This document shows positions 2,112-27,372 of a stretch of 32,000 bases of DNA, piece after piece. How positions within the stretch are numbered: position 1 is the first letter of the stretch; each line of letters begins with the position of its first letter. Made by a program: the position numbers and the translations under genes. The notes below the pieces were generated by a model that worked only from the letters and a program-made list of their open reading frames with translations, searched no databases and was not told where the DNA came from. The DNA is from Psychrobacter sp. HD31 (GTDB lineage Bacteria > Pseudomonadota > Gammaproteobacteria > Pseudomonadales > Moraxellaceae), in contig NZ_CP142525.1 in NCBI RefSeq assembly GCF_051097895.1, forward strand, positions 1,710,001-1,742,000, written 5' to 3'.

Positions 2112-3032
2112 ATGCACATTCTAAAATTAGTTAGTAAGCACAGCACCATTTTAATGCCTGTCGCGAGTATTATTGGTTTGCTCTTCCCCAATATATCTAA
2201 CGCAATATTACCTTGGTTACCGCAAATATTGTTTTTTTTAATGTTCTTTACTTTGCTGGGCATCGCTCAGTCAAGCTTATTGGCGACGCTTAGCAAAAAA
2301 GCAGTTTGGCGATTTGCATTTTTACAAAATATTTTAATTACGACCATTGTAATAGGGCTGGGCTATGTTTTTGGCATAGAGTCTAATTTATTATTAGCCC
2401 TAGCAGCGGTTGGGGCAACAGCGCCGCTATTTGGTAGTGGTGCGATTGTTAATGCCATGGGGTTTGATGCCTTATTGGCAATGGCAAAAACGATTGCTGC
2501 CACGTTAATTATGCCGTTAACGTTATTTATTGTGTTAACTGTATTGGCAGAAGAAGGTGCGTATTTAGATATTGCCGAATATGGTAAACGGCTGCTAATT
2601 TATATTATTACGCCAATGTTGTTATCTATTGTTGTAAAAAAGCTGTTACCGGATTATTTATTACGTAAATATTATCCAAAAATTGCTCAGTTTAATGTGC
2701 TATTGGTGCTGGCTTTCCCGTTAGGGTTAATGGGAGGATTTAGACAAACCTTTGATAATAGCCCTACACAGGCAATACAGTTGTTATTAATGGCACTATT
2801 GTTAGTGATGTTTATTTTTGCATTAACCTATTTATTACACCGCCATCAAGGCAAACAAATGGCAGTGATTGCAGCAACGGTGAGCAGTGGTCGTAATGTA
2901 TTATTGACTTATACTATTGCCATGCCATTTTTAGGCACCTTGTTTTTACCACTTATTGGTGCGTTACAACTGCCTATGTTTTTTACGCCATTTTTTGCTA
3001 AAAAGTTATTAAATAATCAAAATAAGTCGTAA
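2112..3032 (+). CDS. Polytopic membrane transporter-like protein (SBF/BASS- or AEC-like fold suspected; family not resolved)
   Basis: 306 aa ORF with multiple hydrophobic helices, glycine-rich loops (APLFGSGAIVNAMG, SSGRNVLLTYT), an ATG start and a basic C-terminal tail. It lies divergent to the EamA gene. Confidence 0.55.
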   Translation: MHILKLVSKHSTILMPVASIIGLLFPNISNAILPWLPQILFFLMFFTLLGIAQSSLLATLSKKAVWRFAFLQNILITTIVIGLGYVFGIESNLLLALAAVGATAPLFGSGAIVNAMGFDALLAMAKTIAATLIMPLTLFIVLTVLAEEGAYLDIAEYGKRLLIYIITPMLLSIVVKKLLPDYLLRKYYPKIAQFNVLLVLAFPLGLMGGFRQTFDNSPTQAIQLLLMALLLVMFIFALTYLLHRHQGKQMAVIAATVSSGRNVLLTYTIAMPFLGTLFLPLIGALQLPMFFTPFFAKKLLNNQNKS

Positions 3033-3084: not shown

Positions 3085-3900
3085 TTATGCTGGTGGTGCT
3101 TTTTCAAACACGAGGCTGACTGCATTTAAATGATGACGATGTTTACGAAATACTTTACGCATGGCAAGTATTCGTTGACGTTCCTTAGCGTGAGTTAATA
3201 TATTAAACCCTATTTTTAATGTACCAAACAGACCTTCATCTGCTATTAATCGTTTGGGTTCTAATAATGCCATTGTATTAGTTGCCGTTGCTTTTGTTGT
3301 AAAACCTTGTTGCTCAGCCAATTTTGACCATTCAGTAACTGTCAGCGGTCGGGCATTCACCTTAATGACTTTAGAAAGGTCTTTTTGAATTTGCTGCTTT
3401 AGCTTATCTGAAATATCCTTTGGCTGTAAGCCTAATTCATGAATACCATATAGCCCACCAACTTTTAATATTCGATGGGCTTCTTTAATAATTGCTATTT
3501 TTTGCTGGTCGGATTGCATGGTTAACATTGCCTCGCCATAAACTTTGTCATAAGTGGCATTGGCCAAAGCGGTGTTAGAGGCATTGGCAGTAATAATATT
3601 GCAGTGATTAGTAAAGTTGCTACTTTGTTTAATATTTTGCAAGGCAATTTTACTCGCCTCTGGATTTAACTCAACCCCTGTATAGCTGCTTGGCTTTTTA
3701 TCCAGGGTCATTTTTGCGGTTAAGCCAAGCCCAGGGGCAAATTCAACCACATGATCATTGCTGCTGATTGAAAGGTTACTAAGCATTTTTTTTGTTAGAT
3801 CTTTACCACCAGGGCGTAGTACTTTTTTACCCATTTTAGCAAGTAACCAATGCCCTTGGGCGTGATTTGATTTTTTGTTAACTTTACTGTTTGTTGTCAT
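3085..3900 (-). CDS. Class I SAM-dependent methyltransferase
   Basis: Motif I VVEFAPGLGLTA, then the acidic motif II region YTGVELN and post-I/III elements (LKVGGLYGIHEL). The preferred start is ATG 3900, with GGAG 7 nt upstream. It overlaps the tehB stop by 17 nt. The track start at 3903 is a GTG. Confidence 0.8.
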   Translation of the reverse strand: MTTNSKVNKKSNHAQGHWLLAKMGKKVLRPGGKDLTKKMLSNLSISSNDHVVEFAPGLGLTAKMTLDKKPSSYTGVELNPEASKIALQNIKQSSNFTNHCNIITANASNTALANATYDKVYGEAMLTMQSDQQKIAIIKEAHRILKVGGLYGIHELGLQPKDISDKLKQQIQKDLSKVIKVNARPLTVTEWSKLAEQQGFTTKATATNTMALLEPKRLIADEGLFGTLKIGFNILTHAKERQRILAMRKVFRKHRHHLNAVSLVFEKAPPA

Positions 3901-4828
3901 CACCTGCTCCTAGATTTTTTGCAATAATAGTCGCAAAGCGCAATGCAATCGGATTACCATTTGCATCTAAACGATGTAAATATCCAACATTCTCATTATA
4001 TTTTTTGATGTGCCAATGCTGATAATAAGTCGACAGTTCATTACTTTTTAAACCAAACTTAAAGGGCAATAAACCTTGGTAATTGGATAAAGGATAGTCG
4101 TTGGTATCCATGGCACAAACGATGACATTGTAGCCACCCGCCTGAGTATGACTTTGCATGGCGGCAATTACTTCTGCTATTTTGTCTTCGTCAATAAACA
4201 TCAAAACAACCGTGGCAACTACAAGATTATATTTTTTAAGCTGTAATTCATTTCTCTCGCCAGTATTATGCAGGTTGGCAATATGTGCTTGAATATCGGC
4301 TAAGTCTTCTTGTTCAATAATGTGATTTAGCTTGTTAATGGCATTTTCGTTTTTATCAAATGCAGTGACATTAAAGCCATTTTGTTGAAGATAAAGCGCA
4401 TTACGTCCGCCACCACAGCCCAAATCAAGGGCAGATAAACCTGAAAATGATGTGTTGGGGTTGTTTTCAGACTGCATAATCTGTAAAGTTTCAATGACTT
4501 CAGAATGGGTGGTCGAAAGATTGTATTTTTCTTGATAAAAGCTATCAGGCTGGCAATAAAAAGCTAACTGACAACGTAAGTCATCTGTTAAGGGTTCAAC
4601 CTTATGCCATGCCTGTGGCTTAACAAAAGGGATGTTACTTTTTTTATCAAAAATAAAAATATCCGTAATTTTGCCCGCTTCATCCATCGCATAATACTTA
4701 AGCTTACCTGAAAAAATGGTTAATTTTGCCCAAGTCCCAACTTTGGTGTTGTGTTTTTTGCGGAATGCGGTAGGTAAGCTATTTATATCCCATTCTGGCA
4801 TGGTTTTGTAGCAAATTAAATCATGCAT
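3884..4828 (-). CDS. tehB: Tellurite-resistance methyltransferase TehB, long form with N-terminal DUF1971-like domain
   Basis: From MHDLICYKTMPEWDINSLP..HNTKVGTWAKLTIFSGKLKYY..PQAWHKVEPLTDDL it is colinear with the remembered Haemophilus influenzae TehB N-domain. This is followed by the methyltransferase core LDLGCGGGRNALYL...VATVVLMF...GGYNVIV. The start at 4828 aligns with the H. influenzae start. The track start at 4864 has no RBS. Confidence 0.85.
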   Translation of the reverse strand: MHDLICYKTMPEWDINSLPTAFRKKHNTKVGTWAKLTIFSGKLKYYAMDEAGKITDIFIFDKKSNIPFVKPQAWHKVEPLTDDLRCQLAFYCQPDSFYQEKYNLSTTHSEVIETLQIMQSENNPNTSFSGLSALDLGCGGGRNALYLQQNGFNVTAFDKNENAINKLNHIIEQEDLADIQAHIANLHNTGERNELQLKKYNLVVATVVLMFIDEDKIAEVIAAMQSHTQAGGYNVIVCAMDTNDYPLSNYQGLLPFKFGLKSNELSTYYQHWHIKKYNENVGYLHRLDANGNPIALRFATIIAKNLGAGDDNKQ

Positions 4829-4946
4829 GCTCTTTTGCCTATTGTTGAGTTTATCGTTGCACATATTTTGTATCTGTCATATTAAAAAACAGTATCAAAA
4901 TTAAGCGCAGCAACTAGGGTGACTGTTAAATGAGCCATCCTATATT

Positions 4947-5774
4947 TTAATTTACAAGCTCAAATTCAATATAGGTTTGTTCATCATGTTTGCTTTTATA
5001 AGCTTTTTCCATATCTGTATAATGTTTTAAAGATAAAGATACGTTTTTATTTGTTTCATCTGTTTTATCTGCTATGTCTTCATAAAACATAACCAGATAG
5101 TCATCTTTAAATTGTCCTACCCAGCGTCTCTCACCAAAGTGGTGGGTTAGTTTTTGATAAGTTTTATCCGATAAAATAATGTGACTGTCACTAATAGTAA
5201 TGTTTTGTGTAGCTTCTGTGCCTTGGTTTTGTTTGCTAACAAAGTTTCCTGCTAAAGGTAGAATATCTTGAGGTTCGGTTGTGTCTTTTTTGCTATAGAT
5301 ATTCCAACCGTGGTCAGCGGTTGCATTATCGTCTGGGTAGGCAAAGTCTAACGCTTCTTTGATGCCTTCATCACCTTTGCTAGCACATTTATGTTTATAA
5401 ATGGTTATCTGTTTGTTTGCATTTTGCGTTACTTTAAAAAACAATACATAAACAACATCATCATCTGCCTTACCAATCCATTTTTTTTTCGTACTATCAT
5501 AAGATACTTTATGCATACGGTAGTTTGTGCTATGCGCTTTACCACGCATGCGATAATCAATAAAGTCGTTAGCAAAAACATGAATAGAGGTTTGCTTGAT
5601 TGGACCTAAATAAAACGTCCAAATGTATTCACCGGTTAAATCAAAGTTATCATTTTTTATGTGAAAGGTATTGGTAGATTTTACGACCGACTGTTTGGTT
5701 TGTTTTTTGATTTTTTTGGTCTTAAAAAAATAATAAGTACTCACTGAGGCGGCCAATAGTAATAACTTCTTCAT
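4947..5774 (-). CDS. Hypothetical membrane-anchored or exported protein with a weak two-fold internal repeat
   Basis: N-terminal hydrophobic segment MKKLLLLAASVSTYYFF followed by a lysine-rich stretch. GAGGA lies upstream of the ATG. No recognised catalytic motif. The two halves share [KR][KR]W[IV]G..DD.[LV]V.F...KH. Confidence 0.6.
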   Translation of the reverse strand: MKKLLLLAASVSTYYFFKTKKIKKQTKQSVVKSTNTFHIKNDNFDLTGEYIWTFYLGPIKQTSIHVFANDFIDYRMRGKAHSTNYRMHKVSYDSTKKKWIGKADDDVVYVLFFKVTQNANKQITIYKHKCASKGDEGIKEALDFAYPDDNATADHGWNIYSKKDTTEPQDILPLAGNFVSKQNQGTEATQNITISDSHIILSDKTYQKLTHHFGERRWVGQFKDDYLVMFYEDIADKTDETNKNVSLSLKHYTDMEKAYKSKHDEQTYIEFELVN

Positions 5775-5863
5775 TAATTTTTCCTCATAATTTTTTATTA
5801 ATATACTTTAACTGGATAGCTCGACAGTTAAAACATGTATAACGCCTTCTTTATGTTTAAACT

Positions 5864-7417
5864 TTAGTATAAATCTTGATGATAACGTTGCTCTTTCACT
5901 AAATCCTCTATAAACGTTTTCGCTTCATCATCATTTAAATCACCATGCTTTTTAGCAATCATCATCAGCGCATTATCAATGGGTTTGCTTAAGTTTGTTT
6001 TACTGCCACAAACATATATTTCTGCCTTATTTTCAAGTAACCTCCAAACAACCGCTCCTTGTTGCAGTAAAGTATCTTGTACGTAGATTTTTTCTACCTG
6101 ATCACGAGAGAAGGCGGTATAAAGCGCAGTTAATCGTCCATCTTCAACACATTTTTTCAGTTCTGTTTGATACAAAAAGTCTTTATCATGATGGCGTTCA
6201 CCAAAAAACAGGTGAGTTTCGCCCAATCTTTTTTGTGCTAAAAAACCTAAATAAGGCGCAATACCAGTGCCAGCACCAATCATAATAATAGGGGTAGAAC
6301 TTTTGTTTGGTAAATGAAAATGTGCATTAGAACGTACATAAACTTTAGCGGTTACTTCTGACTGTGTATTATCCAGTGCATGACACAAAAAATAACTGCC
6401 ACTACCAAAATAGTCATAGCCTTCACGTTGATACTGAACTTCTCGCACACACAAACGAACCCTATTGGGAGATTGTTTGCCGCACGAGGCGATGGAGTAT
6501 GCTCTGGGCAATTGGGTAGACAAGATATCGAGTAGTGCCTCAAAAGGCATATTTTCAGGTGTGCAATAGTCAGTTAGCAAATCGGCAACATCACGCCCAT
6601 AGCTGTAATCTGCTAATGTTTTGGCAGCACTCATTTTGGTTAAGGCTTTTAGCGCTTTGTTTTTTGTATGTTTGGCAACGGCACGTATTAAGGGTTTGTT
6701 TAGTTGCCGAAGTTCTTTTTCACTTAATAATAATTTTTGCGTATCGCTTAGGTCTTTATAAAAGGTGTTAATACGAGTAATGCTATTTTTATTAGCAGGT
6801 GGCATTAAATATAATAAATCGCCTGCTTGATAGTTCATACCACTGCCTGCAATATTTATATGAATATCATAAACAGGGAACTCGCTTTGGTTAATACGTT
6901 TTACCGTTTCAATAGGGGCAATATAGTTTTGTTGTTCATTGTAGGCTTTAACCTGTAAGTCAAGCTGTTTCAGTGCGCTGCTATCGCCCTCAAAATACAA
7001 AGTGAGGGCATTTGACCATTGCTCAAAAAAATCTTGATAGCAAGTATCAGCATCAACACGCTTACCAATAGAGGTTGCTTTAAGCTGCTGTAACTTTTCA
7101 TCAATATCAATGGTAAATCCGCAAAATTTGGGGTAGGAGACATCCCCTAGACCAAAAATTGCAAATTGACAATCAATTTGACCGTCATAGTCATAAATGG
7201 TGTCAAAAAATTTACTGGCATTACCAGGGGGTTCGCCATCACCAAAACTACTGCTGATAATGAGCAAGATATCTTGTGAGGTTAGCTCTGTGATAACTAT
7301 ATCGTTTAATGGAGATAAAACAGGTTGGTAAGCTAACAGCTTGTCTTTTAATTGCAGTGCAATGTTTTTTGCATTGCCTGATTCTGAGCCGTAAGCGATA
7401 TGAATAGAATGAGACAT
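5864..7417 (-). CDS. CysJ-like diflavin reductase (flavodoxin domain fused to an FAD/NAD(P)H ferredoxin-reductase-type domain)
   Basis: FMN module IHIAYGSESGNA...SSSFGDGEPPGNA...FAIFGLGD. FAD motif RAYSIASC. NAD(P)H motif MIGAGTGIAPYLGF...YVCGS and a C-terminal aromatic tail (HQDLY). At 517 aa it is shorter than E. coli CysJ. Confidence 0.85.
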   Translation of the reverse strand: MSHSIHIAYGSESGNAKNIALQLKDKLLAYQPVLSPLNDIVITELTSQDILLIISSSFGDGEPPGNASKFFDTIYDYDGQIDCQFAIFGLGDVSYPKFCGFTIDIDEKLQQLKATSIGKRVDADTCYQDFFEQWSNALTLYFEGDSSALKQLDLQVKAYNEQQNYIAPIETVKRINQSEFPVYDIHINIAGSGMNYQAGDLLYLMPPANKNSITRINTFYKDLSDTQKLLLSEKELRQLNKPLIRAVAKHTKNKALKALTKMSAAKTLADYSYGRDVADLLTDYCTPENMPFEALLDILSTQLPRAYSIASCGKQSPNRVRLCVREVQYQREGYDYFGSGSYFLCHALDNTQSEVTAKVYVRSNAHFHLPNKSSTPIIMIGAGTGIAPYLGFLAQKRLGETHLFFGERHHDKDFLYQTELKKCVEDGRLTALYTAFSRDQVEKIYVQDTLLQQGAVVWRLLENKAEIYVCGSKTNLSKPIDNALMMIAKKHGDLNDDEAKTFIEDLVKEQRYHQDLY

Positions 7418-7499
7418 GAGTCGTTTGCCTGTGAAGCGTTATAAAACGAGGGTAGGGGCTGCTAAGTTAGCAGACCCTGAGATACATAATAATTAAAGT

Positions 7500-7916
7500 T
7501 TAGTCGTAATATTCATCAAACTGCTCTTTGGCAAATTCAATACTGTCATAGTCGCCCATTAAGTCATTAATAACACGGCGAACACTGATGTATTCAACAA
7601 TTTCACCCGCTTCATTTTTTATTGGCTGAACTGTCGTATCAACTACATATAAAACACCGCCTTTGCCACAGTTGGGTACAACCCCTGTCCAAATCTCACC
7701 TGCTTGGATGGTGTCCCACATATCTTTATAGACTTCTTTTGCAATAGCAGGGTGACGGACGATATTGTGAGGTTGACCAACCAACTCTTCACGAGTAAAT
7801 CCAGTTAATGTACAAAATAAGTCATTTACATAAGTAATAACGCCTTGTAAATCGGTTTTAGATACCACAAATGCGTCTTTGACTGCTTTTAGTACTTCGT
7901 TGTCGATATTTTCCAT
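7500..7916 (-). CDS. Stand-alone Aer-type PAS domain protein (no transmembrane, HAMP or output domain)
   Basis: SKTDLQGVITYVNDLFCTLTGFTREELVGQPHNIVRHPAIAKEVYKDMWDTIQAGEIWTGVV is colinear with the remembered FAD-binding PAS of E. coli Aer (TTDLQSYITHANDTF..GQPHNMVRHPDMPKAAFADMW..GEPWSGIV). The start is set at ATG 7916, with AAGGAG (7923-7928) 6 nt upstream. The track start at 7949 is a TTG. Confidence 0.8.
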   Translation of the reverse strand: MENIDNEVLKAVKDAFVVSKTDLQGVITYVNDLFCTLTGFTREELVGQPHNIVRHPAIAKEVYKDMWDTIQAGEIWTGVVPNCGKGGVLYVVDTTVQPIKNEAGEIVEYISVRRVINDLMGDYDSIEFAKEQFDEYYD

Positions 7917-7996
7917 GACTTGCTCCTTATGGGCTTGGGTTGAGTCCAAAGCAATAGTTGCTATGGTTTTAAAAGTAAAAACTTAATCTAGTGTTT

Positions 7997-8021
7997 AAAC
8001 ATACATTTAAAATGTATGTTT
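7997..8021. promoter_or_regulatory. Putative NsrR operator: perfect 12-1-12 palindrome in the divergent PAS/nsrR promoter region
   Basis: AAACATACATTT-A-AAATGTATGTTT. The inner 11-1-11 half-site AACATACATTT matches the E. coli NsrR half-site AANATGCATTT at 10 of 11 positions. A degenerate second copy (ATACATTTTAAATAT) follows at 8026-8040. Confidence 0.6.
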
Positions 8022-8140: not shown

Positions 8141-8524
8141 ATGAAACTGACTAAACAAACTGATTTTGCACTAAGAACCTTGCTATATTTGGCTAAGCAA
8201 AAAACAAACAATCGTATATTTGTACAAGAAATAGCCGATGCTTATGATATGCCCGTTAATCACCTTACCAAAGTTGTTAATAAATTAAGTAGATTAAGTT
8301 ATATCAACACTTACCGTGGTCGAAACGGTGGCATTGAGCTTGGTCGGACAAAAGAAGAAATTTTAATCAAAGATGTGATTATTGACTTTGAACCATCATT
8401 AACACCAGCCGACTGTGAAAACTGTTTGTTGCGTGGTGGTTGCGGGTTAGAAGTACATCTTGCAATTGCTAGCGATGCGTTTATTGACTCGCTAGGCAAC
8501 AAAAGTTTGGCAGATATTTGCTAA
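8141..8524 (+). CDS. nsrR: Rrf2-family transcriptional regulator, NsrR-like (three C-terminal cysteines)
   Basis: MKLTKQTDFALRTLLYLA...NHLTKVVNKLSRLSYINTYRGRNGGIELGR is colinear with the remembered E. coli NsrR. The putative cluster ligands are C-x2-C-x5-C (ADCENCLLRGGC). The RBS AAGGCGAG precedes the ATG. Confidence 0.75.
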   Translation: MKLTKQTDFALRTLLYLAKQKTNNRIFVQEIADAYDMPVNHLTKVVNKLSRLSYINTYRGRNGGIELGRTKEEILIKDVIIDFEPSLTPADCENCLLRGGCGLEVHLAIASDAFIDSLGNKSLADIC

Positions 8525-8546: not shown

Positions 8547-9071
8547 TTATTGATTTGGGTCTACTTGCAAGGTTAAGTTTGAGAGTAGGTCTGTTGCATT
8601 TGATTCATCACACAAAAAGGAAAGCAGAGCATCTGACCACTGTTCAAAAAACGCTTCATAATCAACATCTGCATCTACACGGTTTGCTATCCTATTTGCA
8701 CCTGCTTTATCAAGTAGCCCATCAACCACCTTAGAAAATCCACAAAAGTTTAAATAATTGACATCACCAATCCCAAAAACGGCATACTGAAAGCCAAATT
8801 TTGGTGTATCGGGTTTCATGCGCTGTTGCATTCTAGTTTGTATCAGATTTTGATAAAAAACAGTGGCGTTGTGCGGTGGTTCGCCATCGCCAGTGGTACT
8901 AGAAATAACAAACAACAAGGTGTTTTTGTCCCACTGCTGCATGTTTTCAATGAGCAGCTCATTTAAGCAGCCATAATTTGGTTTAAATGCTGCTAGCTTT
9001 TGTTTAAGCTCATGGGCTAAAGTGTGTGCGTTGCCAGACTCAGAACCGTAGGCAATGTAAATTTTTGGCAT
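8547..9071 (-). CDS. Long-chain flavodoxin, paralogue of the N-terminal FMN module of the 5864-7417 reductase
   Basis: IYIAYGSESGNAHTLAHELKQKL...SSTTGDGEPPHNA...YAVFGIGDVNYLNFCGF...RVDADVDYEAFFEQWSDAL aligns position-for-position with reductase residues 1 to about 160. Confidence 0.85.
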   Translation of the reverse strand: MPKIYIAYGSESGNAHTLAHELKQKLAAFKPNYGCLNELLIENMQQWDKNTLLFVISSTTGDGEPPHNATVFYQNLIQTRMQQRMKPDTPKFGFQYAVFGIGDVNYLNFCGFSKVVDGLLDKAGANRIANRVDADVDYEAFFEQWSDALLSFLCDESNATDLLSNLTLQVDPNQ

Positions 9072-24990: not shown

Positions 24991-25054
24991 AATGTTAAGA
25001 AACAAGCAATTTATCAAACCTTAATATATTTTTGTTAGGTGTTTCTATTAAATA

Positions 25055-25765
25055 TCAAAATGGTAAATCAACAGTAATATTTTCATTTATTTCAGTAGGG
25101 ACTATAAAGTCAATATTTCTTAGATGTTCTAAGATATCCCTATAAAGAGCCATCGATTTCTCTAAATACTCTTTGGGCAAGTCATCCGATTTGAGATAAA
25201 ATTTATTCTCAACGTCATAAAATTCAATATTCTTTCCAAAATCATTTAATAACTTCTTTTTATCTTGTTCATCTTTATATGTGGAATTATCATGAATAAT
25301 CTTATTTCTTAGTTGCTGAAACTGGCCCAATCTTGGTTTATGTTTATTTAATAAGTCTTCACTTAGTCCCGTTGTTAATTTTAAATAATTAAGTCCCGAT
25401 TTAATGTAATCTCGTCCATTTAGAGAGGAAATATCGAGTTTGCTTTTAGTTTTTTCTTGAATTAATTTACTAAGTTGAAATAATTGATTTTCAAAAAATG
25501 AATGTACCAAAGTAATCGACGAATGGTAATAAAATGAGTTTATAGATCGAAGTTGAGTTTCATAAAGGTCATTTACACGAGTTTGTTCTTCTGGTTTTTC
25601 TTCTATTTCTTGATTTAAAGAATATTCAAGCTTATCTATTGTTGTTTCAACTCTATTAGAATTTAAATCAAAATACTTCAATAGGTAATTAAATTCCTTT
25701 TGTAATTTATTTTCATAGCTTTCAAATGAAAATCTTTTTTGTATAGTATTTTTATATGTAAACAT
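25055..25765 (-). CDS. HEPN-like domain protein (R-N-x3-H motif); function unknown, putative RNase or abortive-infection-type toxin
   Basis: 236 aa, predicted helical and K/E/N-rich. The C-terminal half carries QQLRNKIIHDN, the canonical R[NHD]xxxH HEPN signature. There is no signal peptide and no adjacent MNT or antitoxin ORF. Confidence 0.55.
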   Translation of the reverse strand: MFTYKNTIQKRFSFESYENKLQKEFNYLLKYFDLNSNRVETTIDKLEYSLNQEIEEKPEEQTRVNDLYETQLRSINSFYYHSSITLVHSFFENQLFQLSKLIQEKTKSKLDISSLNGRDYIKSGLNYLKLTTGLSEDLLNKHKPRLGQFQQLRNKIIHDNSTYKDEQDKKKLLNDFGKNIEFYDVENKFYLKSDDLPKEYLEKSMALYRDILEHLRNIDFIVPTEINENITVDLPF

Positions 25766-25879
25766 TTATCTCAATATTTGGTAGCCTACGACAAACGACT
25801 TTTATATGTTTTGTACGGCTGTAATTTAAAGCAACTTGTCAAATCATGTTATTAGTTATTTAACGTAAAAGCAAGCCAA

Positions 25880-25899
25880 GTAGGGTGCGTTCCATGCAC
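25880..25899 (+). repeat. REP element (GTAG-type hairpin), downstream flank of the RayT gene
   Basis: GTAGGGTGCGTTCCATGCAC. Its reverse complement matches 26501-26520 at 18 of 20 positions. It has an internal GTGCGT/ATGCAC stem. Confidence 0.65.
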
Positions 25900-25910
25900 A
25901 GTTCTAAAAA

Positions 25911-26454
25911 CTACTCTAACTTATCTGACATACTATTATCAAATATAACACCTTGTCCCCAATCACTCGTATATACTCCTTTGTTAACATAACGATGAAA
26001 ACTTGAATATTGCCAATCTCTTACATGTGTCACTAAGCCATGTTTTACAGGATTGTAATGTAAATAATCAATATGTTTTCTGAAGTCGGCAGCATCTTTT
26101 ATTAGATGTTCATAAAAGCGACGTTGAAATATACCTTTTTCATTTCTTTTAACTTTTGAATAGCTTAATTCTTCTATAGGTAAATGATATTGAGGGCATA
26201 ATTTGGTTGTTCTACGTTTTATTTGTGACCAGCATTGGCTGTAATTGGTATTATTTCCCAAATACAATGTAGGTGGTCTGGTAATTGCACCCACATGCAA
26301 TTATTTTAAATGGATAGTTTTTTTGTGTTTCTTTGATACTTGCACGTAATGCTTTTAAAAAGTCAGGATTGGTAAATATTTTTCTACGTTGATAAGACAC
26401 CAAGGTAAAAAAGTAGGTTGCTCCTTGCGTATATGACCGTATGTAACGTGACAT
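25911..26454 (-). pseudogene. REP-associated tyrosine transposase (RayT/TnpA-REP, IS200/IS605 Y1 family), disrupted by two small frameshifts
   Basis: The N-terminal ORF (MSRYIRSYTQGATYFFT...PFKIIA) and the C-terminal ORF (NNTNYSQCWSQIKRR...RRFYEHLIKDAADFRKHIDYLHYNPVKHGLV..DWQYSSF) are colinear with the remembered E. coli RayT (YafM). The HUH motif is encoded in the third frame as WVQLPDHLHCIW (26258-26293). Confidence 0.8.
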
Positions 26455-26500
26455 TTTTTGTTCAATTAAGTCCTTTTGTTATGGGCATTATAGAGCATTG

Positions 26501-26520
26501 GTGCGTGGGACGCACCCTAC
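26501..26520 (-). repeat. REP element (GTAG-type hairpin), upstream flank of the RayT gene, inverted relative to 25880-25899
   Basis: The plus strand reads GTGCGTGGGACGCACCCTAC, so the minus strand reads GTAGGGTGCGTCCCACGCAC. It forms a perfect GTGCGT-ggg-ACGCAC hairpin. Confidence 0.65.
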
Positions 26521-26625
26521 TTACTTAACAGCTCAAGGTTAGGCTAAATAAACAACTTGAGATTGCAAAAGTTGTTGATGTTTAACAACCCCAAAACAAA
26601 TATACATATCTATTTTTAGTAAATA

Positions 26626-27210
26626 TTACTTAGCCTGAATATTAGGTAATTCAATATTTCCAACTTTTTTTACAAGATTTGCCTTAGTCGTAACAATTGT
26701 ATTCAAAAAAGTATTTTTCTCTTCCTCATTTGATACATAGTTGCGATACGAGTAGGCGTATAGAACTAAATAATTTCCAGATTCATTTTTCTCATTTCTG
26801 TATCTATAAATATTCCATTCATAAATATTTCCACTACTTAAGATGAATTCAAGAACTATTTCTTTCCCATACTCAAACTTCTCGTAACTGACAATGGGAT
26901 TAATGCTTTTCCAACCTTCTAACTCATTAATTTTTCCATTAGCGACATATATTGCTGGAAAATCTCCTTTTATAGCTTCTACCATTAGCATTTTTTCATA
27001 CTCTGGCAAGCTGTCATTTTTTCTTAAATATTCTTGCTTATAATATTCTTTTGATGGATGAGAACTCCATTTAAGTTCGTATACTTCTCCATTAAATTCA
27101 ATTTCTTTTCCTATAGATAAATATTCAGTTGGTTCAGAGTTAGCGTTTGCAGTTGTGATAAACAATACACTTAAAAAACTAACTGCAAAAAATATATAAA
27201 TGTTTTTCAT
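26626..27210 (-). CDS. Hypothetical secreted protein
   Basis: Type I signal peptide MKNIYIFFAVSFLSVLFITTANA|NS. The mature part is rich in Y/E/N/K, with no motif I recognise. Confidence 0.55.
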   Translation of the reverse strand: MKNIYIFFAVSFLSVLFITTANANSEPTEYLSIGKEIEFNGEVYELKWSSHPSKEYYKQEYLRKNDSLPEYEKMLMVEAIKGDFPAIYVANGKINELEGWKSINPIVSYEKFEYGKEIVLEFILSSGNIYEWNIYRYRNEKNESGNYLVLYAYSYRNYVSNEEEKNTFLNTIVTTKANLVKKVGNIELPNIQAK

Positions 27211-27282
27211 GATTAAAATGTCTGTTTGAATGTTTGCTAACGTCTCGATAAACGATATGATGAATGTTTATTTGGAGTTATA

Positions 27283-27295
27283 AGTTAATGGTTTA
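27283..27295. repeat. Right copy of the 13-bp direct repeat AGTTAATGGTTTA
   Basis: Exact match to 24978-24990. It lies 158 nt upstream of the parE ATG. Confidence 0.6.
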
Positions 27296-27372
27296 TTTAA
27301 CAATATTATTTGTTATTTAACCAAATATCAAGCTAAAAGATAATACCAGCCAATATCTATAAATCCCCACAA

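Follow-up and report, generated by a model that had tools for sequence, protein, structure and literature searches.

A string of five minus-strand genes in Psychrobacter sp. HD31, encoding a PAS protein, a diflavin reductase (DFR), a 275-aa protein, TehB and a second methyltransferase (MT2), is closest in its apparent control to the operons of the NsrR regulon, of which hmp, ytfE/dnrN, hcp-hcr, yeaR-yoaG and Salmonella STM1808 are the described examples. The DNA analyzed, called the window below, is the whole 32,000-nucleotide (nt) stretch at positions 1,710,001-1,742,000 of NZ_CP142525.1. The yeaR-yoaG operon is repressed by NsrR, and STM1808 is said, in work attributed to Karlinsey in 2012, to be a DUF1971 protein that contributes to nitric oxide (NO) resistance. 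The described operons share a three-cysteine regulator of the Rrf2 family and an inverted-repeat operator (published consensus gATGyAT-N5-ATrCATc; PMC1274295) lying over the promoter, often beside a divergent nsrR gene. Both yoaG, the operon partner of yeaR, and STM1808 are listed as regulon members (PMC7527575), and tehB homologues were predicted as members by Rodionov et al. in 2005 (PMC1274295). The window resembles these operons in regulator, operator and the presence of a DUF1971/TehB-type gene of the predicted kind, but in place of hmp, hcp or ytfE its targets comprise a PAS-reductase pair, a member of a new exported family, full-length TehB and MT2, none of which is described as an experimentally verified NsrR target in the literature searched. 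An initial annotation of this DNA had known of no reductase-tehB operon under an NsrR-type operator, which is half right: tehB homologues themselves had already been placed in predicted NsrR regulons.

Hmp, Hcp-Hcr, NorV-NorW and Legionella glbN-lpg2536 provide a second comparison, as in each of them, and in the window, a small partner gene lies beside its own pyridine-nucleotide reductase with NsrR- or FNR-type control. The window differs in that the partner is a flavin-type PAS protein and not a globin, hybrid-cluster or di-iron protein, and that the reductase is of the two-flavin CysJ/CPR type. No description of a PAS and diflavin reductase system under NsrR was found in the literature searched, and the pair appears to be uncharacterized.

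Based on the evidence set out below, we consider it somewhat probable that the string forms a composite operon, specific to its lineage and belonging to the NsrR regulon, in which two modules that are separate elsewhere have been joined. Module A would consist of the PAS protein and a dedicated NADPH diflavin reductase, and module B of a predicted exported, lipocalin-like protein and long-form TehB, accompanied in the window by MT2. From its gene content and context the composite string looks like a nitric-oxide stress response rather than the tellurite/selenite detoxification line proposed at first. The NsrR assignment is favored because both modules are separately tied to nsrR genes and NsrR boxes in other genomes.

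Open reading frame (ORF) calling placed the five genes head-to-tail in the order PAS (7500-7916), reductase (5864-7417), 275-aa protein (4947-5774), tehB (3884-4828) and MT2 (3085-3900). The PAS protein (138 aa) was read from an ATG at 7916, which is preceded by an AAGGAG Shine-Dalgarno sequence; the mechanical call was a TTG at 7949. The reductase has 517 aa with Pfam FMN, FAD and NADPH domains, TehB has DUF1971 and TehB domains, and MT2 is a class I S-adenosylmethionine (SAM) methyltransferase matching Methyltransf_25/11. For tehB, the start at 4828 is likelier than the alternative at 4864, being the one called in a 98% identical twin locus (L083; compared loci carry L-numbers and proteins P-numbers). 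The gaps are 82 nt between PAS and reductase genes, 89 nt between reductase and 275-aa genes, and 118 nt between the 275-aa gene and tehB (82 nt from the 4864 start), and tehB overlaps MT2 by 17 nt if MT2 begins at its ATG (3900), which has a good Shine-Dalgarno sequence, or by 20 nt if it begins at a GTG (3903). ORFs, gaps and overlap were all as initially annotated, and the domain assignments (PAS, CysJ-like diflavin reductase, a 275-aa protein without a family, TehB, methyltransferase) were upheld by Pfam and NCBIfam.

A pattern scan found neither minus-strand terminators nor sigma-70-like promoters in any internal gap of the string, in keeping with the earlier statement that the gaps hold no convincing intrinsic terminator. 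Two hairpins had been remarked on as lacking U-runs. The one between the PAS and reductase genes (7455-7477, minus strand) is a real, stable structure (region dG -17.9, z -2.6) with no adjacent U-run and is a possible partial terminator or attenuator; the other (5808-5831) was no better than shuffled sequence. Equivalents of the post-PAS hairpin were located in L081 (3157-3260), L084 (7921-8000), L087 (7851-8000), L003 (9909-10000) and L113 (3493-3566). Because the hairpin recurs, with a U-tract in L084, L113 and L003, transcription is possibly attenuated past the PAS gene, and the hairpin may be a conserved intra-operon attenuator that leaves the PAS protein in excess over the reductase. Judged on this layout, the five genes probably form one operon.

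Upstream of the PAS gene lies ACATACATTTAAAATGTATGT (7999-8019), a near-perfect 21-bp palindrome. Its core, cATAcAT-TTAAA-ATgTATg at 8001-8017, departs from the published consensus by one mismatch per half, and it is the sole match in the window, where 0.19 matches would be expected by chance for the degenerate 17-mer and 0.01 for the 21-mer. By this resemblance the operator is classed as NsrR-type, as the initial annotation had proposed. It is situated just downstream of the -10 box of a predicted sigma-70-like promoter on the minus strand (8050-8023, TTGCAA-16-TATAAT, a pattern match to 10/12 consensus positions), over the predicted transcription start. This promoter is the best match in the intergenic region shared with the divergent Rrf2-family gene that it faces (8141-8524, plus strand; Pfam Rrf2 2e-25). 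The regulator passes the Rrf2 superfamily model (94.2 vs 73.3 bits) and carries three C-terminal cysteines (C92, C95 and C101); its best NCBIfam match is NsrR (NF008240), at 101.3 bits, which does not reach the 182-bit equivalog cutoff. A search of the window's internal gaps for a second NsrR box or half-site gave only half-sites with 2 mismatches, at noise level, and a 1-mismatch box in the reductase-to-275-aa gap of L081 was within chance expectation. In the window, then, no NsrR box precedes module B, which accords with transcription reading through into it from the one promoter under operator control.

To follow module A through other genomes, a reductase profile was scanned against one genome per species of the Genome Taxonomy Database (GTDB), yielding 80 loci. 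The PAS gene was immediately upstream of the reductase gene in all 56 loci in which the reductase was at least 36% identical, and was absent from the 24 more distant ones. These 56 loci span the gamma-, beta- and alphaproteobacteria and include Pseudomonas, Stenotrophomonas, Mannheimia, Haemophilus, Actinobacillus, Aggregatibacter, Erwinia, Serratia, Alteromonas, Veronia, Lampropedia, Vandammella, a rhizobial plasmid and Tritonibacter. Within them the PAS protein shows 60-86% identity and is conserved far more strongly than the reductase; across the Proteobacteria loci compared, where it is always just upstream of the reductase, the range is 60-96%. Neither tehB, MT2 nor a gene of the 275-aa family was found within 10 kb in any of the 56. 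Clustering of flanking ORFs gave no conserved neighbor of the pair besides regulators; in high-GC loci some of the ORFs called were spurious antisense ones.

An nsrR-like gene adjoins the pair in L003, L007, L023, L049, L051, L054, L081, L083, L084, L085 and L091, and in many loci an Rrf2 homologue is divergent either from the PAS gene or from a gene of the 275-aa family. The PAS gene has an NsrR box upstream in the window and in 10 other loci (L081, L083, L084, L091, L003, L054, L007, L039, L051 and L055), and in L085/L086 such a box precedes the PAS operon's first gene. The pair in L087 is oriented divergently to genes for qNorB and a Crp/Fnr regulator. An FNR-type box (TTGAT-N4-ATCAA) is present ~97 nt upstream of PAS in nine Stenotrophomonas loci (L016, L027, L032-L034, L036, L038, L041 and L044), and in several Stenotrophomonas loci a Crp/Fnr-type gene with an N-terminal cysteine cluster is found downstream of the reductase on the opposite strand. 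Going by these neighbors and boxes, the context of the pair is repeatedly related to NO or anaerobiosis.

Module B was traced by scanning metagenomes with a profile of the 275-aa family, which returned 34 loci, mostly from dolphin-mouth assemblies. A gene of this family is followed on the same strand by a DUF1971-TehB gene in 15 of the 34, with gaps mostly of 4-54 nt. In L107, L108, L109 and L112, where PAS and reductase genes are absent from the vicinity, this pair has a divergent nsrR of its own, and a perfect NsrR box (e.g. AACATACATTATAAATGCATATT), the sole box of each contig, is located ~70 nt upstream of the 275-aa-family gene. L110 has the same box upstream of its 275-aa-family/tehB pair. 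One lineage (L123 7792-8289; L090 3426-3707) carries a 165-aa ORF with a Rossmann-like GGTG motif and no Pfam match between the 275-aa gene and TehB.

The two modules are fused in a small set of relatives. The PAS and reductase genes are followed by the 275-aa gene, with TehB and MT2 where sequence is available, in the window and L083, L081/L099, L091/L100, L101, L113 and L090. Identity to the window falls from the twin through L081/L099 (reductase 82% identical) and L091/L100 and L101 (~62%) to L113 and L090 (~58%). SufC-like and SufBD-like genes are inserted before tehB in L081/L099; in L081 (6095-8004) these are a SufC-like ABC ATPase (239 aa) and a SufBD-core protein (366 aa) between the 275-aa gene and tehB. 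In L085, reductase and tehB share a strand without a 275-aa protein and are separated by genes for a TonB-dependent receptor and a periplasmic binding protein. The reductase-tehB neighborhood recurs in L083, L081/L099, L091/L100 and L101, and in the altered form just described in L085; in none of the 56 species genomes is tehB near the reductase. By this comparison both NsrR modules appear to be joined behind one operator in the window and likewise in at least three further lineages from dolphin-mouth metagenomes.

The proposed course of events is as follows. Without NO, NsrR would bind at 7999-8019 over the transcription start and block promoter 8050-8023. NO would damage the Fe-S cluster of NsrR and so lift repression, and a single transcript would then run through the PAS gene, where the hairpin may attenuate it and leave PAS in excess, and on through the reductase gene, the 275-aa gene, tehB and the translationally coupled MT2. 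By analogy with other NsrR targets in which a small reactive protein has its own reductase (Hmp, Hcp-Hcr, NorVW and glbN-lpg2536), electrons would pass from NADPH to FAD, FMN and finally the PAS flavin. TehB and its partners would act in the same stress response and would not be chalcogen-specific.

Several points weigh against this assignment. The regulator is below the NsrR equivalog cutoff (101 vs 182 bits), and the first two of its cysteines are spaced otherwise than in E. coli NsrR. In most PAS-reductase loci, namely those of Pseudomonas and Pasteurellaceae, neither an NsrR nor an FNR box could be detected. The known role of flavin-PAS proteins is that of sensors and not of catalytic partners of reductases, and no NO-reactive metal center is evident. 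Tellurite or oxidants could likewise inactivate an Fe-S repressor. The canonical tehAB of Salmonella is not derepressed in an nsrR mutant (PMC2884951). As to the operon itself, spacing and absent pattern matches are weak evidence of co-transcription; the post-PAS hairpin resembles a real terminator in some relatives, so that read-through to tehB could be low; and the fused string could owe its recurrence to vertical descent from a single ancestral fusion instead of to selection.

The least improbable of the rival explanations is that the string is no functional unit, with PAS-reductase, the 275-aa gene and tehB-MT2 expressed independently and adjacent by shared ancestry in one family. The window's gaps of 82-118 nt could hold weak promoters, the terminator-like hairpin of the relatives would suit such an arrangement, the modules are unlinked outside this clade, and relatives differ both in spacing, with gaps of 254-427 nt in L081 and L091, and in the genes inserted (SufCD-like; TonB receptor and binding protein; SDR-like). 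The long gaps, however, seem to be secondary insertions because they contain a shared GC-rich repeat, found in opposite orientations at L091 2886-3311 and L081 8991-9270 (CCTCCCCTCGAAAAGGGGAGGAACAGTCC, with neighboring GGGCTTACGCCCATCA), which resembles a small mobile or REP-like element that has entered the operon. Elsewhere the reductase-to-275-aa gap shrinks to ~20 nt (L090 and L113) or 35 nt (L101), too short at ~20 nt for a promoter; such gaps leave no room for separate control and therefore argue for one transcript. L091 keeps the string though its flanking genes differ from those of the window, and independent expression would also have to account for the separate ties of both modules to nsrR and NsrR boxes and for the missing box before module B in the window. 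On balance we think this alternative unlikely.

The 275-aa protein matches no Pfam or NCBIfam family and belongs to a rare one: a collection of 5.8 billion proteins yielded 37 homologues, and one of 1.84 billion representatives 100 clusters. A hydrophobic anchor is present at the N-terminus of the window's copy, and Bacteroidota members have a lipoprotein signal; the motifs YKHKC, DHGWN and HxGERRWVG are invariant in the family. An AlphaFold (AF2) model (pLDDT 88.3) predicted two beta-barrel halves, and Foldseek searches with it gave weak, non-significant lipocalin-like matches covering one barrel only (best E 0.02, TM ~0.4-0.6). The protein is thus described here as an exported member of a rare new family, lipocalin-like by model, with the fold likeness weak. 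The N-terminal barrel also occurs as a stand-alone protein of ~150 aa, and within large proteins with a type IX secretion tail (P0294 and P0304). In P0327, the first barrel is fused to an HmuY heme-binding domain.

In Bacteroidota (L093, L094, L118, L127, L130 and L132), genes of the 275-aa family occur in linkage with those for a truncated globin and a small cupin and for a homologue of MT2 that is 56-60% identical to the window's. The order in L093 (6737-7459), L127, L130 and L132 is the 275-aa-family gene, then the truncated globin and a conserved 112-aa cupin, then the MT2 homologue; in L094 a full suf cluster lies just upstream of the 275-aa-family/MT2 pair. Homology of the 112-aa cupin to the DUF1971 domain of TehB, which would have made the Bacteroidota and window gene sets architecturally equivalent, was rejected (hhalign probability 0.2).

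Such neighbors raise the alternative that module B serves heme handling, the lipocalin-like protein binding heme or a heme-derived ligand, TehB supporting heme use and NsrR control reflecting the NO sensitivity of heme and iron. The HmuY fusion, the truncated globin genes adjacent in Bacteroidota loci, the TonB-dependent receptor and periplasmic binding protein within the L085 string, and the invariant His and Cys residues together with the weak resemblance to lipocalin and nitrophorin folds all point this way, as does the finding that H. influenzae tehB mutants are impaired in the use of heme sources (PMC12119688). Set against this, the fold matches are non-significant, the fusion is a single protein, TehB is cytoplasmic and its partner exported, and neither MT2 nor module A is explained. 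We regard a heme-handling role for module B as quite doubtful.

TehB has been reported to methylate tellurite and selenite in vitro. The window's protein is a true orthologue within the enzyme family whose role in tellurite resistance has been demonstrated, passing both equivalog cutoffs (NF008992, 374.9 bits against 303; TIGR00477, 263.4 bits against 219.5) with Pfam matches of 2e-28 to DUF1971 and 4e-66 to TehB. It aligned over its full length to H. influenzae TehB 3m70 (1e-83, residues 2-304), with which it shares the two-domain architecture and the motif LDLGCGxGRN, its own SAM motif being LDLGCGGGRN. It differs from the H. influenzae protein in its setting, having an exported lipocalin-like protein as gene partner and predicted control by NsrR. 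Its N-domain matches E. coli YeaR (7e-14), gonococcal tehB is induced anaerobically (PMC3032703), and tehB mutants of H. influenzae are sensitive to oxidants. The link of tehB to NsrR is supported by these observations and by the tehB homologues predicted as NsrR targets.

MT2 belongs to a large family of mostly 258-aa Bacteroidota proteins (56-65% identical). Homologues adjoin genes of the 275-aa family in L093, L094, L118, L119, L124, L127 and L129; family members are often solitary in Bacteroidota, where context is uninformative. By predicted fold, MT2 matches generic small-molecule methyltransferases. An ArsM-type assignment was rejected, with no invariant cysteine among 27 aligned members and ArsM models scoring 19-31 bits against cutoffs of 240-510. 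ArsM, bacterial thiopurine methyltransferase (TPMT) and the Challenger pathway are like the window in comprising SAM-dependent methyltransferases that act on toxic oxyanions; unlike them, MT2 is without the ArsM cysteines, and no arsenic- or tellurium-type regulator or transporter is nearby.

It was from TehB and the NADPH-fed two-flavin reductase beside it that the string had first been read as a chalcogen line, in which the reductase, with the flavodoxin encoded at 8547-9071, would reduce tellurite, selenite or methylated intermediates, and the two methyltransferases would convert them to volatile products in Challenger fashion. The orthology of TehB, the translational coupling of the methyltransferases and the recurrence of the string with its reductase in relatives speak for this; flavoproteins can also reduce tellurite, and tellurite harms Fe-S clusters and could derepress an Fe-S repressor. 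We consider it highly improbable, as the reductase is tied to PAS in 56/56 loci and to tehB in 0/56, the 275-aa/TehB module occurs without a reductase under its own nsrR (L107-L109 and L112), the regulatory context is one of NsrR, norB with a Crp/Fnr regulator, or FNR-type boxes, MT2 has the generic character just described, the flavodoxin is not conserved with the unit, and the source communities seem to be animal mouths, where tellurite would be unlikely and nitrite and NO common.

The flavodoxin gene (minus strand; Flavodoxin_1), which had been counted as an extra electron source of the unit, was found only in the window and its closest relatives L083 and L081 among the loci compared. The protein is 37-47% identical to the FMN domains of the reductase homologues across the compared loci. 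No NsrR box is present upstream of its gene, which converges on the nsrR gene, their stops being 22 nt apart. The gene has a promoter region of its own and probably lies outside the conserved unit.

Returning to the composite NsrR operon, the character of module A was examined through its closest sequence relatives. The PAS protein belongs to a very strongly conserved family of stand-alone domains of 137-141 aa, the window's copy having a short C-terminal tail. Its sequence matches in the PDB are MmoS (3ewk, 1.5e-33), Aer (8dik, 2.5e-26) and NifL (2gj3, 2.2e-17). With these it shares the GxPHxxVR region, of which G.PH..VR is invariant in 58 family members, and with MmoS an NxFC cysteine; unlike them, it has no output domain and is always found with a diflavin reductase. 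By this relationship it is predicted to be of the FAD-binding type, and we infer that FAD is its cofactor. The reductase carries, in order, PF00258 Flavodoxin_1, PF00667 FAD_binding_1 and PF00175 NAD_binding_1, and its PDB matches are sulfite reductase flavoprotein (SiRFP), CPR and nitric-oxide synthase (NOS) reductase, the best being E. coli SiRFP 6efv (2e-73). It has the FMN-FAD-NADPH order of CysJ, with 6efv as best structural relative, but is without the N-terminal oligomerization segment of ~60 residues and without a nearby cysI. Identity with CysJ was rejected (TIGR01931, 373.9 bits vs a cutoff of 668.15, the alignment beginning at model position 60), and no cysI-type sulfite reductase hemoprotein gene was found in the window or related loci.

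A further, joint proposal goes beyond the composite operon, and we put it forward as rather unlikely in its entirety. The PAS-reductase pair would be a widespread, undescribed NADPH-driven enzyme of nitrosative or anaerobic stress, a flavin-only analogue of Hmp or Hcp-Hcr, and the natural role of TehB would be in NO, nitrite or heme stress with its lipocalin-like partner, tellurite methylation being a side activity. The pair is conserved from Pseudomonas and Stenotrophomonas to the Pasteurellaceae, and its links to NsrR, FNR-type boxes and norB point to a missing component of nitrosative or anaerobic defense, which would matter for pathogens including Mannheimia, Haemophilus and Stenotrophomonas. 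Many host-associated bacteria carry TehB, whose natural substrate has never been clear, since tellurite is rare in nature. Its repeated placement under an NO-sensing repressor, beside an exported partner, provides a testable context for its function, and if the proposal is true it would explain why host-associated bacteria that are never exposed to tellurite retain a gene for resistance to it.

Three other features of the window were recorded. A 306-aa multi-pass membrane protein without a family match (2112-3032) converges on MT2 and has the same position in L081 and L083. An Rfam search of the window returned two tRNAs and nothing else. An AT-rich islet at 25000-27300 (27-31% GC vs ~38-40% around it), between a UPF0227 gene and parE and near xerD, contains three minus-strand ORFs of 236, 129 and 194 aa with no Pfam match.

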